Below are positions 2,905 to 61,199 of a stretch of DNA of 64,000 nt, piece by piece (the first letter of the stretch is position 1; each line of letters opens with the position of its first letter). This stretch comes from a virus (lineage: Duplodnaviria > Caudoviricetes). The translations under genes were made by a program, and so were the position numbers. Location of the stretch: IMG/VR virus record IMGVR_UViG_3300033076_000277, positions 1,656 to 65,655 of that record, one strand, 5' to 3'. The notes below the pieces were generated by a model. That model was not told the origin of the DNA. It saw only the letters and a program-made list of their open reading frames with translations, and searched no databases.

Positions 2905-2986
2905 GCGCAGGAGTCCTTTTCGGTTGCATCCTCGTTGGCGCGAGTGTACACTCCTTTTCGGCGAATGCGCAAGTTGTCTTGTTCAT
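2897..2986 (-). CDS. 29-aa micro-ORF (MNKTTCAFAEKECTLAPTRMQPKRTPAHV) overlapping TerS start
   Basis: Preceded by the phage's exact recurrent start motif AGGAGAAGCAAATG; its stop overlaps the TerS ATG region. Confidence 0.4.
   Translation of the reverse strand: MNKTTCAFAEKECTLAPTRMQPKRTPAHV
2943..2972 (-). promoter_or_regulatory. candidate sigma70 promoter for terminase operon
   Basis: TTGCGC-18nt-TACACT on - strand; -10 lies within perfect palindrome GAGTGTACACTC (2942-2953). Confidence 0.45.
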
Positions 2987-3022
2987 TTGCTTCTCCTTGA
3001 GGTGAGTTTGCATTGCCTCTTC

Positions 3023-3400: not shown

Positions 3401-3769
3401 ATGACTAAGTCATTCAATCGTGTTGCCGTGTTCGCTGTGTTCAATGATGCGGACAAGTCGTCCGCCAGTTTCGCTGAGCGTCTGCTTGCGCTTGGCATCG
3501 GTTCGCGTGCTGACGCTCGCCCTCTTGCAATGGAATGGGCGGCCAAGAAGCATGGCGTTGCGATCAAGCAAGGCCAACGTGGTGCGACACTGCCACGCGA
3601 CTCAGCCGCTGAGCGTGCAATGAACCGCGTGCTTCAGGTGTGCTTCCCAAGCGCTGACCTCAAGTCTGCCAAACGTACAGCCAACAAAGTTGACGCTGTG
3701 GACGCGTTGCTCAAGAAGTACCAAGCACTCACCGCAAGTGAGAAGCGCCGTTTCCTCAAGTCAATCTGA
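3401..3769 (+). CDS. early hypothetical protein
   Basis: 122 aa, SD GGAG in GGAGCTTTATCATG. Confidence 0.8.
   Translation: MTKSFNRVAVFAVFNDADKSSASFAERLLALGIGSRADARPLAMEWAAKKHGVAIKQGQRGATLPRDSAAERAMNRVLQVCFPSADLKSAKRTANKVDAVDALLKKYQALTASEKRRFLKSI
3448..3470 (-). repeat. 23-bp motif copy S0 (inside CDS)
   Basis: - strand reads AACTGGCGGACGACTTGTCCGCA. Confidence 0.8.
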
Positions 3770-59019: not shown

Positions 59020-59274
59020 TTAGCAATTCCAAGCCCGAAGGCTCTTGTTGATACGGGAGTTCGGGTCTTTCTTGGCCTTCTCTCCGGTTAACTTTTTCTT
59101 CATGCCTTCCATGCGGGCGCAGAAAGAGTCGCGGCGTTTGCCGCCCTCTGGTTGAGGGCGCTTCAGGCCCGGTTTCCCGGGGTTCGCTGCGTTGTACGAG
59201 GCCCGTCCCTTGGCATTCAAGCCGCCCTTGGGGTTCTTGCCCTCTTTGCGTTGCCATGCTGGAGACTTAGCCAT
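59020..59274 (-). CDS. small basic protein
   Basis: EGKNPKGGLNAKGRASY...RRDSFCARM...SLRAWNC. Confidence 0.8.
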   Translation of the reverse strand: MAKSPAWQRKEGKNPKGGLNAKGRASYNAANPGKPGLKRPQPEGGKRRDSFCARMEGMKKKLTGEKAKKDPNSRINKSLRAWNC

Positions 59275-59575
59275 AGATTAACATCGCCGAGTCGACGTTG
59301 GTGATAGCCGCATAAACTCCGGTACGCACCAAAACACCCTCGCCGGGCATCAAGATGTAGTATGTGCCTTGGTTTGCAGCGGTTGGCGTGCTAATTGTGC
59401 CGATTGGTTTGCCTGTGTTATCAGCACCGTCATACAAAACCAATGTACCAGCTAAGGCAGCAGCAGTTCCGTAGATTGCTTTGATACGACAAGGGCCAAG
59501 CACAGCACCAGACTGTGTTTTAAACGTGTTTGAGCTGCCAAGCGGCTGCGTTAGCAGTACGTCTGTTTGCATCAT
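59267..59575 (-). CDS. small beta-rich virion protein
   Basis: AAGGAG SD; GEGVL...Y pattern. Confidence 0.7.
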   Translation of the reverse strand: MMQTDVLLTQPLGSSNTFKTQSGAVLGPCRIKAIYGTAAALAGTLVLYDGADNTGKPIGTISTPTAANQGTYYILMPGEGVLVRTGVYAAITNVDSAMLIYG

Positions 59576-59589
59576 AATCAAGCTCCTTT

Positions 59590-59609
59590 AAAAACGGGGC
59601 CGAAGCCCC
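59590..59609 (-). terminator. intrinsic terminator
   Basis: - strand GGGGC-TTCG-GCCCC-GTTTTT (cUUCGg tetraloop). Confidence 0.75.
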
Positions 59610-59619
59610 TTGGGGTTGA

Positions 59620-60084
59620 TTAGTTCTGGAATGCAGTAGGAGCCTGAGCACCATCAGAATTACGCACAGCGTAAGTAACGATGATGGTTGCAGCGCCAGT
59701 GGTCAAAGAAGTACCAGCCAGTGTGTAAGTGATGATGGCATCAGTCGCACCAACGTTCAACCAACCGCCGGGGGTAGTTGCGTTAGCGCCCAAAGCCACG
59801 CTACCAACGCTGGTGATCGTGCCGGTGGTTGTGAAATCTGTACCGCCAATGCTCAATTTGCAGGTTGTGGCTGCACTGAACACAGTGGTTGTGACAACTT
59901 TAACGTCAACGATTTGGGAACCGGCAGGAACAACAACTGCATTACCAGTCAGTGTGCCGTAGACAACGTTAGCGCTTTGTGAAACAACTGTGCAGCCTGT
60001 GTTTTGAATCGTGCCAGCAGTAGTGCCAGTAGTGTTTTTAACAGTACCAAGCAACCAAGGGCCAAGGTGTGTTGCGAATCCCAT
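59620..60084 (-). CDS. putative capsid decoration / minor capsid protein
   Basis: T/G/A-rich, VPAGSQIVDVKV.VTTVF pattern; follows MCP. Confidence 0.65.
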   Translation of the reverse strand: MGFATHLGPWLLGTVKNTTGTTAGTIQNTGCTVVSQSANVVYGTLTGNAVVVPAGSQIVDVKVVTTTVFSAATTCKLSIGGTDFTTTGTITSVGSVALGANATTPGGWLNVGATDAIITYTLAGTSLTTGAATIIVTYAVRNSDGAQAPTAFQN

Positions 60085-60096
60085 GATGTATTCCTT

Positions 60097-60165
60097 ACAT
60101 ACAAGTCAAAGCGCATCAGTCGGTATGTCGTCTGCCGGGACAGTTTGATGCACCGGAAAGCCCGG
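60097..60165 (-). ncRNA. candidate pseudoknotted 5' leader RNA
   Basis: GTGCATCA/TGATGCGC stem; loop ACATAC pairs with GTATGT next to SD; 5' CCGG/CCGG hairpin. Confidence 0.55.
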
Positions 60166-60174
60166 ATTGAGTGC

Positions 60175-60203
60175 AATATACAACAAAAGAAAAACAGATG
60201 CAA
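60175..60203 (-). promoter_or_regulatory. sigma70 promoter
   Basis: TTGCAT-17-TATATT. Confidence 0.8.
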
Positions 60204-60208
60204 CAAAT

Positions 60209-60234
60209 AAAAAAGCCACCCGAAGGTGGCTTTT
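60209..60234 (-). terminator. bidirectional intrinsic terminator after MCP
   Basis: AAAAGCCACC-CGAA-GGTGGCTTTT; U6 tract on - strand. Confidence 0.85.
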
Positions 60235-60269: not shown

Positions 60270-61199
60270 TTAAGAACCTTGTGAACCCCACATACCGAGG
60301 GGATCAGACCAGCCGAAGCTGTAACGCTCACGAGACTTGTAGCGAACGTTACCTGTGTCGAAGTCACCGTCCATGCTGTTTTGCAAGGCGATACGCTCGA
60401 AGTGCTTCATGCCGTTTGGCACGTCAGTCAACAAATACCAGCCGTTGCTGTCTGTCAAGAAGTGGTTGACAGTGTAGCCTTCAGGGATTGCACCCATCTG
60501 CTTCAACGCGTTGATATCGTTGTCGGTTGTACCAACACGCAATTCGGTGTCAAGCAAACGCTTAGCAACGAACATCAATGCTGGAGGAACAACCATCTTA
60601 CGGGGCTTAGCAGCGATCAGCAAACCACGCTCGTCTGTCCAAGCAGCGATCTGGATCACAGCGTTTTCCAAAGATGTTTCGTTCAAGTCAACGCCAGTGG
60701 CTGGGCTGTTGTAGTTCACACCACCGTTAACGAGTGGGTGGCCAACACGTGAGCCGCCAGAGCTCACGCCGAACAAAGAAACACCGTCACCGCCCAAGTA
60801 TGAACCGCTAAAGCCGTTGTTGATAACGGAAGCAGCCTTAACTTGCTTGGTGTAAGCCATAGCACGTGCCAAAGCTTTGGTGTAACGAGCTGACAAGGAG
60901 TCATACAAGTTATCTTCCACAGCTTCTTCAGTGATACTGAAGCCCAGAGCGATTGTCTCGTGGTTGTAGCGTGCAGTGAAGGCTTCTTGTGCGTTGTCAT
61001 AAGAAAGGGCTTGACCCTCGTTCTTGACAGGCGCAGCAGCGAAACCAGCCAGCTTTGTCTCTTCTTCGAAGCTACGCTCAGATTTCTCTGTTTCGTAGAT
61101 CTCTTTGTGCTCTTCGCCGTAACGGGCGTATTCCATGCCGAACAAAGCGTTCAGACCGGGGAGCAACTCTTTAAGTAGTTGTGCGCGTGAAATTGCCAT
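60270..61199 (-). CDS. major capsid protein
   Basis: MAISRAQLLKELLPGLNALFG...P..LVVPP.L...GDFDTGNVRYKSRERYSFG. Confidence 0.9.
   Translation of the reverse strand: MAISRAQLLKELLPGLNALFGMEYARYGEEHKEIYETEKSERSFEEETKLAGFAAAPVKNEGQALSYDNAQEAFTARYNHETIALGFSITEEAVEDNLYDSLSARYTKALARAMAYTKQVKAASVINNGFSGSYLGGDGVSLFGVSSGGSRVGHPLVNGGVNYNSPATGVDLNETSLENAVIQIAAWTDERGLLIAAKPRKMVVPPALMFVAKRLLDTELRVGTTDNDINALKQMGAIPEGYTVNHFLTDSNGWYLLTDVPNGMKHFERIALQNSMDGDFDTGNVRYKSRERYSFGWSDPLGMWGSQGS

Follow-up and report, generated by a model that had tools for sequence, protein, structure and literature searches.

A predicted double-pseudoknot RNA leader in front of a putative capsid cement gene is conserved in lake and ocean phages

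Introduction

The described RNA that comes closest to the element reported here is Mu-gpT-DE (Rfam family RF03012), which we take to originate from the 2017 motif collection of Weinberg. In Rfam this RNA is typed as 'Gene; sRNA' and its function is unassigned. Its model has a length of 53 nt and two nested helices without a pseudoknot (consensus CCCUG-A-CAGcc..ggCUG-AC-AcUAGCCAc-GA-CAGG-AGAU..AUG), and it is found downstream of Mu gpT-like capsid genes, directly before a gene for a cement-like protein. Here we describe an RNA leader at the corresponding position in a tailed phage (Duplodnaviria; Caudoviricetes). The window that was analysed is a stretch of 64,000 nt comprising bases 1656-65655 of the 65,655-bp IMG/VR virus record IMGVR_UViG_3300033076_000277, which is rated complete; the late genes are on the minus strand. 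The leader (60165-60097) follows the gene for the major capsid protein and precedes a gene for a putative capsid cement protein.

Pseudoknots close to a ribosome-binding site are also known from other mRNAs. The double pseudoknot of the E. coli alpha operon (S4) and the pseudoknot of rpsO (S15) are operators of ribosomal-protein mRNAs; each of them has several helices, lies at the ribosome-binding site and can adopt a hairpin or a pseudoknot conformer, and when folded it can occupy the 30S platform and trap or block initiation. The preQ1-II and SAM-II riboswitches are compact pseudoknots that act on translation and whose 3′ strand reaches the Shine-Dalgarno (SD) sequence. Among phage mRNAs, the leader of T4 gene 32 has a 5′-proximal pseudoknot that governs translation of the downstream gene. 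Autogenous translational control by this pseudoknot is cited in a 2023 survey that predicted 8,495 unnamed automatic candidate RNAs in IMG/VR phages (PMC10690425), and the RNA from the window may be one of these candidates. Judged from sequence, it is best described as a real, widespread and structured RNA that is absent from Rfam 15 and as a new, doubly pseudoknotted form of the Mu-gpT-DE family of leaders, for which a function can only be proposed.

Results

The leader between the promoter and the ATG of the cement gene is about 84 nt long, and roughly 70 nt of it can be arranged in four helices, a, c, d and e, the strands of which follow each other in the order a-c-d-a′-d′-e-c′-e′ (5′ to 3′). 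Helix c (9-10 bp) is predicted to close a three-way junction. Its 5′ strand GGTGCATCA(A) at 60145..60154 (RNA GGUGCAUCA at 60154-60146) pairs with 60119-60110; the 3′ strand (C)TGATGCGCT (RNA UGAUGCGCU at 60118-60110) is preceded by the conserved junction bases GA (60121-60120), which together with this strand occupy 60110..60121. A single A separates helix c from hairpin d (60132..60143), which consists of 3 bp, CTG/CAG (60143-60141 / 60134-60132), and a 6-nt loop (T+CCCGG), and is followed by a conserved AC (60131-60130). The loop carries a′ (CCCGG, 60139-60135) and pairs with CCGGG at 60161..60165, the 5′ strand of helix a, so that hairpin d is lengthened by pairing with the 5′ end of the transcript (5-7 bp across the family). 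Within the region enclosed by helix c, the single strand ACATAC (60123..60128) forms helix e with GTATGT (60102-60097), and the SD sequence AAGGA (60096-60092) follows directly, e′ and SD together covering 60092..60102. Across the family helix e has 5-8 bp, and its 3′ strand abuts or overlaps the SD. CGA(C) lies between e and c′, and 7 nt lie between c′ and e′. Since a:a′ crosses c:c′ and d:d′, and e:e′ crosses c:c′, the predicted fold is a double pseudoknot on a three-way junction.

An earlier note on this DNA, made from the sequence alone, had described a pseudoknotted leader that touches the SD, behind its own promoter and on a capsid-associated gene, and this structural reading proved correct. 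The pairing of GTGCATCA with TGATGCGC that it named is real and corresponds to helix c (60154-60146 with 60118-60110), and the pairing of ACATAC (60128-60123) with GTATGT, which ends at the SD, corresponds to helix e. An extension of the first pairing by GTC/GAC has to be given up, because these bases are taken up by helix d, a variable spacer position and helix a′, and because the proposed partners are the near-invariant G and the invariant A of the GA junction.

Folding of the single sequence is uninformative, since nested folding cannot see pseudoknots: the minimum free energy structure had a z-score of +0.52, and 137 of 200 shuffles folded as well. The nested subsets of the proposed helices had energies of −9.1 kcal/mol (a and e) and −10.5 kcal/mol (c and d). 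A start-stop ATGTAA at 60100-60095 is not conserved in relatives.

In order to look for covariation, as the earlier note had suggested, we compared the 120 nt upstream of relatives of the cement protein, of which IMG/VR contains at least 592, and compensatory changes were obvious in these regions. Alignment A1 was made with MAFFT, cut at fixed offsets from the ATG, and not fitted to the structure. A4, also a MAFFT alignment, served as an unfitted test of helices c, d and e. For A6 a covariance model (R2) was used that holds helices a and e only, leaving c and d unfitted; this was done because MAFFT shifts helix a by 1-2 columns and, in A1, helix e as well. In A1 helix c was 97.7% paired, with changes on both sides in 8/8 inner pairs. 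Helix d was 100% paired in A1, A4 and A6. Both-side changes were found for 10/10 pairs of c, 2/3 pairs of d and 6/6 pairs of e in A4, and the same counts were obtained in A6 (10/10, 2/3 and 6/6), in which c was paired to 94% and helix a to 99%, with 4/5 pairs of a changed on both sides. The 88.6% pairing of helix e in A6 is an underestimate, since R2 mis-registers this helix in the ATGCAA/TTGCAT clade. Overall, compensatory changes are abundant: 22 of the 24 pairs changed on both sides (A4, A6), and 0/500 shuffles reached the observed covariation score or percentage of pairing in A1, A4 or A6. Sliding the partners by 1-3 columns reduced pairing from 87-95% to 26-42%.

We also parsed 234 leaders (165 distinct) directly and found all four helices in 131 distinct leaders. 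Among these 131, the number of distinct complementary types was 77 for c:c′, 34 for e:e′, 17 for a:a′ and 7 for d (CTG/CAG, CAG/CTG, CCG/CGG, CCC/GGG, CCT/AGG, CCA/TGG and CG/CG). Five Watson-Crick pairs in a:a′ were present in 131/131 leaders, compared to a chance of 2.6% per shuffled upstream region. Invariant positions in A4 were the C that opens d, the G that closes d′ and the A after it, with the subsequent C conserved to at least 90%; in A1 and A3 the A of the GA junction was invariant and the G conserved to at least 90%. Identity across the relatives was 81% for the cement protein and 54-58% for the leader columns, which were still paired. G.U was counted in 54 cells of the helices and A.C in 26, which modestly favours the sense strand as the one that folds.

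For the CCGG at the 5′ end, a hairpin with an alternative partner in the loop had been proposed in the earlier note. Both partners exist, one local (b, CCGG at 60153..60156, which overlaps the first two bases of helix c) and one distant (60139-60135), but the 'alternative' partner is the universal a:a′ pairing, and the local a:b hairpin (four or more Watson-Crick pairs) is seen in just 43 of the 131 distinct leaders (versus 7% in shuffles). Where it occurs, b covaries with a (CCGG, CCAG, TCGG, CTTGG). The hairpin is confined to GC-richer freshwater clades, to which the phage of the window belongs, and absent from AT-rich marine clades. Its calculated energy in the window is −5.5 kcal/mol; the fold that contains a:a′ reaches −9.6 kcal/mol (a:a′ alone, −6.0 kcal/mol). 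As the weaker of the two, the a:b hairpin would either be an intermediate during transcription or represent the open state of a switch.

Hundreds of phages from lakes and oceans share the predicted leader RNA, with mutations in one strand compensated in the other. In the 65.6-kb genome the motif occurs once (covariance search with filters off). Among isolates it is present in the Pelagibacter phages HTVC023P (L083 3494-3566), before gp41, and HTVC027P (L246 about 3470-3546), before gp62, and in phage DSL-LC04 (L082 3469-3539), before a gene annotated as 'cement protein'; the passages covered in papers on HTVC023P-type phages mention no RNA element. All motif matches lie directly upstream of a cement-like gene. 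In HTVC027P the small ORFs gp60 and gp61 lie between the capsid gene and the promoter and motif of gp62 (L246 2968-3385), which indicates that the RNA belongs to the downstream gene. A search with the covariance model R1 and default Infernal filters found the motif in 26/80 and 33/80 loci of two marine/brackish sets. Direct parsing revealed a variant in many of the remaining loci: helix a is longer (7 bp) and helix d shorter (2 bp), and together they make a stacked arm of almost unchanged length; the rest had other types of leader.

IMG/VR was also scanned for the RNA itself, with the 14-base core ACTGNCCCAGCAGAC, which gave at least 120 stretches, and among the matches listed the full four-helix motif was found in 91 of 115 testable stretches. 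The genes 3′ of these motifs form at least five clusters that are unrelated by BLAST and code for 160-290 aa, and all of these clusters start with M-x-x-(S/T)-T-F-x-G-P-V (loci L247-L366). This suggests a conserved N-terminal arm for docking to the capsid that is combined with exchangeable bodies. The gene 5′ of the motif was a Mu gpT-like capsid gene in 3/4 cases tested.

The leader was also compared with Rfam 15 (4227 families), a check that the earlier note had proposed. No match to the leader was obtained in a search of 3 kb, nor when 171 nt were searched with lax filters and E values up to 10 accepted; generic terminator look-alikes were the sole Rfam matches. In the same slot of related contigs (L175, L178, L181, L186, L188, L192, L223), however, RF03012, which the earlier note does not mention, was found with 60-72 bits, and the Roseobacter phage CRP-901 (L245 2773-2825) also has it, as judged by sequence. 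The two leaders share several features. Like RF03012, the window leader lies downstream of a Mu gpT-like capsid gene (PF10124, phrog_371) and directly before a homologous cement gene, and both leaders reach the SD. Both have the same order of junction elements, namely a 5′ strand, A, CNG[loop]CNG, AC, about 9 nt, GA and a 3′ strand; in the window this reads A-CTG-T-CCCGG-CAG-AC ... GA-(C)TGATGCGCT. They differ in the outer helix, which in RF03012 has 4 bp (CCUG/CAGG) and includes part of the SD (ACAGGAG), whereas in the window it has 9-10 bp, is located away from the SD and is crossed by two further helices. In the window leader the hairpin loop is filled by the 5′ end (a), and the strand of about 9 nt pairs next to the SD (e).

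The window leader did not reach the RF03012 gathering threshold of 49 bits and gave no score even at E up to 10, and in the reverse direction the RF03012-type loci were missed by our own models (default filters, E up to 1). Since neither model detects the other form, the window leader cannot be counted as a member of RF03012, and we infer common ancestry from the shared slot and junction. On this view the window RNA would be a larger, double-pseudoknot relative of Mu-gpT-DE, and the two would represent the long and the short form of one leader family. The RF03012 model itself extends past the SD and reaches the start codon (AUG) of the cement-like gene. This implies that RF03012 is really the 5′ leader of the cement gene, and both its Rfam type and the name 'downstream element' look misleading.

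Two other kinds of leader were observed in this slot. A third type (L190, L204, L218, L241, L228) has no evident helices and keeps CCC and spaced GAC repeats in the pattern CCCAAGAC-N5-AAACGAC-N8-AAGGAGG; the conserved junctions of the pseudoknot and of RF03012 likewise consist of GAC/GA. These repeats hint at a trans factor that reads GAC. The Planktothrix phage Pag-Yong1, the closest isolate by capsid DNA, does not have the motif. Its leader (L081 3977-3984, 4007-4014) contains a GC-rich hairpin, the loop and 3′ stem of which (CCGTCTCC) are exactly complementary to the SD region GGAGACGG; the loop CCGUCUCC is an exact 8-nt complement of GGAGACGG, the SD of the gene after the capsid gene. This is predicted to be a different, SD-sequestering pseudoknot in the same slot.

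On the minus strand of the window, the order of elements given in the earlier note was found in place: terminator of the capsid gene, promoter, leader, cement gene and 3′ terminator. The upstream gene (60270..61199) codes for a major capsid protein with a Mu gpT-like HK97 fold (phrog_371 major head protein, E 4.9e-18; Pfam PF10124 Mu-like_gpT, 25.5 bits at a cutoff of 20.1). An intrinsic terminator follows at 60209..60234 and is composed of an A-run, the hairpin AAAAGCCACC-TTCG-GGTGGCTTTTTT (GCCACC-TTCG-GGTGGC) and a U-run; its energy of −20.1 kcal/mol (z −6.67) was not reached by any of 200 shuffles. Terminator-like hairpins are present 5′ of the motif in 78 of 129 related leaders. The promoter at 60175..60203 has a −35 element TTGCAT (60203-60198), a 17-nt spacer and a −10 element TATATT (60180-60175). 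Although it lies where the earlier note had placed it and its box is kept in relatives, only 8/12 positions match the consensus and it is absent from the promoter list of the scan tool, so that the term 'consensus promoter' was too strong. A box of the TATAAA/TATATT/TATAAT type ends 6-9 nt before helix a in 108 of the 131 distinct leaders, with a TTGCA-type −35 element at a distance of 16-17 nt. From these conserved elements, the 5′ end of the RNA is predicted 0-3 nt upstream of helix a, at about 60168.

The cement gene itself is located at 59620..60084 (ATG 60084-60082, TAA 59622-59620). At 59590..59609 it is followed by a hairpin GGGGCUUCGGCCCC (GGGGC-TTCG-GCCCC, 59609-59596; −11.0 kcal/mol) and G-TTTTT, which may act as a terminator or as a 3′ stabiliser. 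The T-run merges into the SD of the next gene (AAAGGAG; ATG at about 59575), for which no promoter of its own is present in the sequence. Consequently, the hairpin must be leaky. The cement gene therefore has its own promoter and flanking terminators, as the earlier note had stated for an isolated unit, but it is not fully isolated, since the next gene is read through the 59609-59596 hairpin. This next gene (59267-59581, minus strand) codes for about 101-104 aa (phrog_28102, function unassigned), and its expression depends on the read-through. The identical UUCG-capped GGGGCUUCGGCCCC hairpin stands 3′ of the cement gene in the window and in marine relatives (L098, L102, L109 and others), where the flanks differ; a terminator-like hairpin at this position was found in 37/123 relatives. 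In the window sequence there is no terminator between the motif and the ATG, which makes control by transcription termination inside the leader unlikely. In one locus (L009, about 2985-3003) the 3′ end of the capsid gene is fused out of frame to the cement ATG at a short AGCTT repeat, and terminator, promoter and leader are all missing, by natural deletion or as an assembly chimera. Three GenBank entries of 65,014 bp each (OQ594354, OL906435, PP438419; hosts given as Synechococcus, Planktothrix and Planktothricoides) have identical matches and may be the same phage, perhaps one of a co-cultured heterotroph.

The 154-aa product of the gene has no Pfam or PHROG match. It is 37% identical to the 'cement protein' of DSL-LC04, and hhalign gave 97% between the two families. 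The AF2 model is an eight-stranded beta sandwich with a pLDDT of 59.8. According to VIA-align its structural neighbours are the cement proteins of KHP30 and KHP40 (Z 9.9 and 9.7; KHP30 gp15, rmsd 4.8 over 115 aligned residues), a capsid chain of Pam1 (7eel_H, Z 8.8, rmsd 2.7 over 106), BPP-1 (3j4u_H, Z 7.8) and also GP4; as the pLDDT of the model is low and generic jelly rolls score Z 7-8, the support is moderate. KHP30 gp15 was also the top profile match, though a weak one (E 0.6), and Foldseek of the model against the PDB gave no match at E up to 0.001. As for the cement proteins of the BPP-1/Pam1/KHP30 type, a small jelly-roll gene is located next to a gene for an HK97-fold capsid protein. 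The position together with the structural neighbours makes a jelly-roll capsid cement (decoration) protein a reasonable call for the modelled product. No relation was detected by hhalign between the family of the window protein and that of HTVC023P gp41, and gp41 is linked to the DSL-LC04 family only through its N-terminal 39 residues (46% probability).

Discussion

Our data point to an RNA that ties the 5′ end of an mRNA and its ribosome-binding site together in one fold. For this fold the earlier note had offered riboswitch, ribozyme or autoregulatory operator. A cis-regulatory role at the ribosome-binding site is best supported, while a ribozyme and autoregulation by the cement protein found no support. 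With moderate confidence we favour a cis-acting mRNA leader that gates access of the 30S subunit to the mRNA of the cement protein, possibly combined with protection of the 5′ end. Several findings are in agreement with this. In 126 of the 131 distinct leaders the distance between the end of helix e and the SD core is −5 to +3 nt, and 48 of the 131 have 1-5 SD bases within the helix, e.g., in CCTCA/TGAGG, and the RF03012 and Pag-Yong1 leaders also pair upstream sequence with the SD. As in autogenous operators, the structured element lies at or next to the ribosome-binding site of its own gene, with helix e ending at the SD. The position of the −10 box relative to helix a implies that the first bases of the transcript are locked into the hairpin loop. 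Ribosomes would be impeded or trapped by the folded leader, which some factor may clamp, and could initiate once the leader is open; where the local a:b hairpin exists, in the freshwater clades, it would shift the balance towards opening. Such gating would set the amount or the timing of the cement protein independently of the capsid protein, whose own message stops at the preceding terminator. Which way translation is affected, and by what trigger if any, is proposed by inference only.

Some observations weigh against gating. The SD core is unpaired in 83 of the 131 distinct leaders, including that of the window, so that any occlusion must be steric; the fold might even promote ribosome docking. 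The a:b alternative that a simple two-state switch needs is missing from the marine clades. A structured 5′ end together with a GC-rich hairpin at the 3′ end fits a plain design for mRNA stability equally well. Moreover, the 5′ end and the effect on translation are predictions from sequence, and no candidate trans factor was identified.

The main rival of gating is accordingly a constitutive lock of the 5′ end, which we consider possible but doubtful. Here helix a would pair the first nucleotides into the loop of d and hide the 5′ end from decay by RppH/RNase E or RNase J, and together with the 3′ GC hairpin this would give a long-lived, highly translated monocistronic message without any switching. 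Cement proteins are needed in amounts similar to those of the capsid protein, and 5′-terminal stem-loops stabilise E. coli mRNAs such as ompA. The −10 box, with its conserved distance of 6-9 nt to helix a in 108/131 leaders, leaves only 0-3 unpaired nucleotides at the predicted 5′ end, a stable UUCG-capped hairpin stands 3′ of the gene here and in marine relatives, and the SD core is unpaired in 83/131 leaders. A simple 5′ hairpin would suffice for such a lock, however, and four covarying helices, the conserved A, AC and GA and a helix e that in nearly all leaders stays within 3 nt of the SD exceed this need; in addition, pairing involves the SD itself in the Pag-Yong1 leader and in the shorter form, RF03012. 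A 5′ end held inside the fold and an internal strand that pairs downstream are also properties of the nuclease-resistant xrRNAs, and resistance to 5′-end-dependent nucleases may be common to both (PMC12397905). The xrRNAs are defined by a three-dimensional ring around the 5′ end and by stalling of Xrn1, and are known from eukaryotic RNA viruses and not from phage mRNAs. It is a possibility that the 5′-end-in-loop topology is the bacterial counterpart of these viral RNAs.

A more far-reaching idea seems unlikely to us: the leader could be the sensor domain of a new class of riboregulators in phages that are among the most abundant of oceans and lakes. As a riboswitch it would respond to a small molecule that signals the condition of the infected cell; as an operator it would be bound by an RNA-binding factor of phage or host that recognises the conserved GAC/GA junction. 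In both cases the cementing of capsids would be timed to the condition of the infected cell.

Below gating and 5′-end protection, we rank autoregulation by the cement protein, a small-molecule riboswitch, a trans-acting or antitermination function and a ribozyme as progressively less likely. According to the first of these, free cement protein that is not bound to capsids would repress its own translation, like T4 gp32 or ribosomal proteins. The RNA always accompanies a cement-like gene, the RNA core and the (S/T)TFxGPV arm are the two items conserved across families that have diverged beyond BLAST, and titration by capsids would provide control of stoichiometry. Yet the three cement proteins examined have pI values of 6.5, 4.2 and 4.1 with 4-6 K+R in 151-173 residues and a jelly roll without a known RNA-binding motif, and these few basic residues and the neutral to acidic pI argue against binding of the protein to its own mRNA. 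The same RNA core also serves protein bodies without detectable similarity. The S4 and S15 operators, by contrast, are bound by their own basic, rRNA-binding products, and no similarity to them in sequence or model was found; the T4 gene 32 leader has a simple H-type pseudoknot about 40 nt upstream of the ribosome-binding site, which nucleates a cooperative single-stranded DNA-binding protein, and not a double pseudoknot abutting the SD. Autogenous control is quite unlikely.

A metabolite or ion riboswitch of a new class, in which binding of a small ligand to the junction (A, AC, GA) would stabilise the pseudoknot and shut the ribosome-binding site, is unlikely. As expected of a riboswitch, the element is conserved, covarying and structured and lies in a 5′ UTR; its junction is compact and pseudoknotted with few near-invariant unpaired bases, it reaches the SD and is widespread, some clades have an alternative 5′ hairpin, and none of the 4227 Rfam families matched. 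But the regulated gene codes for a structural protein of the virion without a metabolic link, and every motif found precedes a cement-like gene, whereas preQ1-II and SAM-II, which have defined ligand pockets and gave no match here, control genes of metabolism or transport. About five conserved unpaired bases are available for a pocket, and the alternative hairpin is clade-specific. The unstructured leaders of related phages that keep only the GAC repeats would fit a protein or ribosome partner better.

It is very unlikely that the element acts outside translation, as a small RNA in trans or as a modifier of the polymerase in cis (HK022 put-like) that promotes reading through the 59609-59596 hairpin into neck/tail genes. 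It does lie directly after the promoter, downstream genes without a promoter stand behind a terminator-like hairpin, and RF03012 is filed as 'Gene; sRNA'. On the other hand, there is no terminator between the motif and its ATG, helix e is tied to the position of the SD in almost every leader, the RF03012 model itself spans the region from SD to AUG, and only 37/123 relatives have a terminator-like hairpin after the gene. Finally, a self-cleaving ribozyme that processes a capsid-cement transcript is extremely improbable: double pseudoknots are typical of several ribozyme classes (HDV-like, twister, glmS) and the motif lies between two highly expressed genes, but no known self-cleaving class (hammerhead, HDV-like, twister, pistol, hatchet, glmS and others in Rfam) matched at E up to 10, the strand order a-c-d-a′-d′-e-c′-e′ is at odds with the topologies of HDV and pistol, there are few invariant unpaired bases, and the conserved terminator and promoter already split the messages, with the RNA predicted to start at helix a, so that no processing is needed.

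Ribosome gating, possibly with protection of the 5′ end, thus gives the leader family a testable function. Cultured systems that carry the leader are HTVC023P and HTVC027P on Pelagibacter HTCC1062 and DSL-LC04, with CRP-901 for the short form, and an infection transcriptome of HTVC027P is published (PMC12753301). Rfam 15 lacks this compact RNA, in which 24 base pairs covary and which contains two crossing pseudoknots, and the Mu-gpT-DE 'sRNA' would be recast as the minimal form of a family of capsid-cement 5′ leaders. We know of no description of post-transcriptional control of the stoichiometry of capsid decoration in tailed phages, and it is to this kind of control, through ribosome access, protection of the 5′ end or both, that the leader points.

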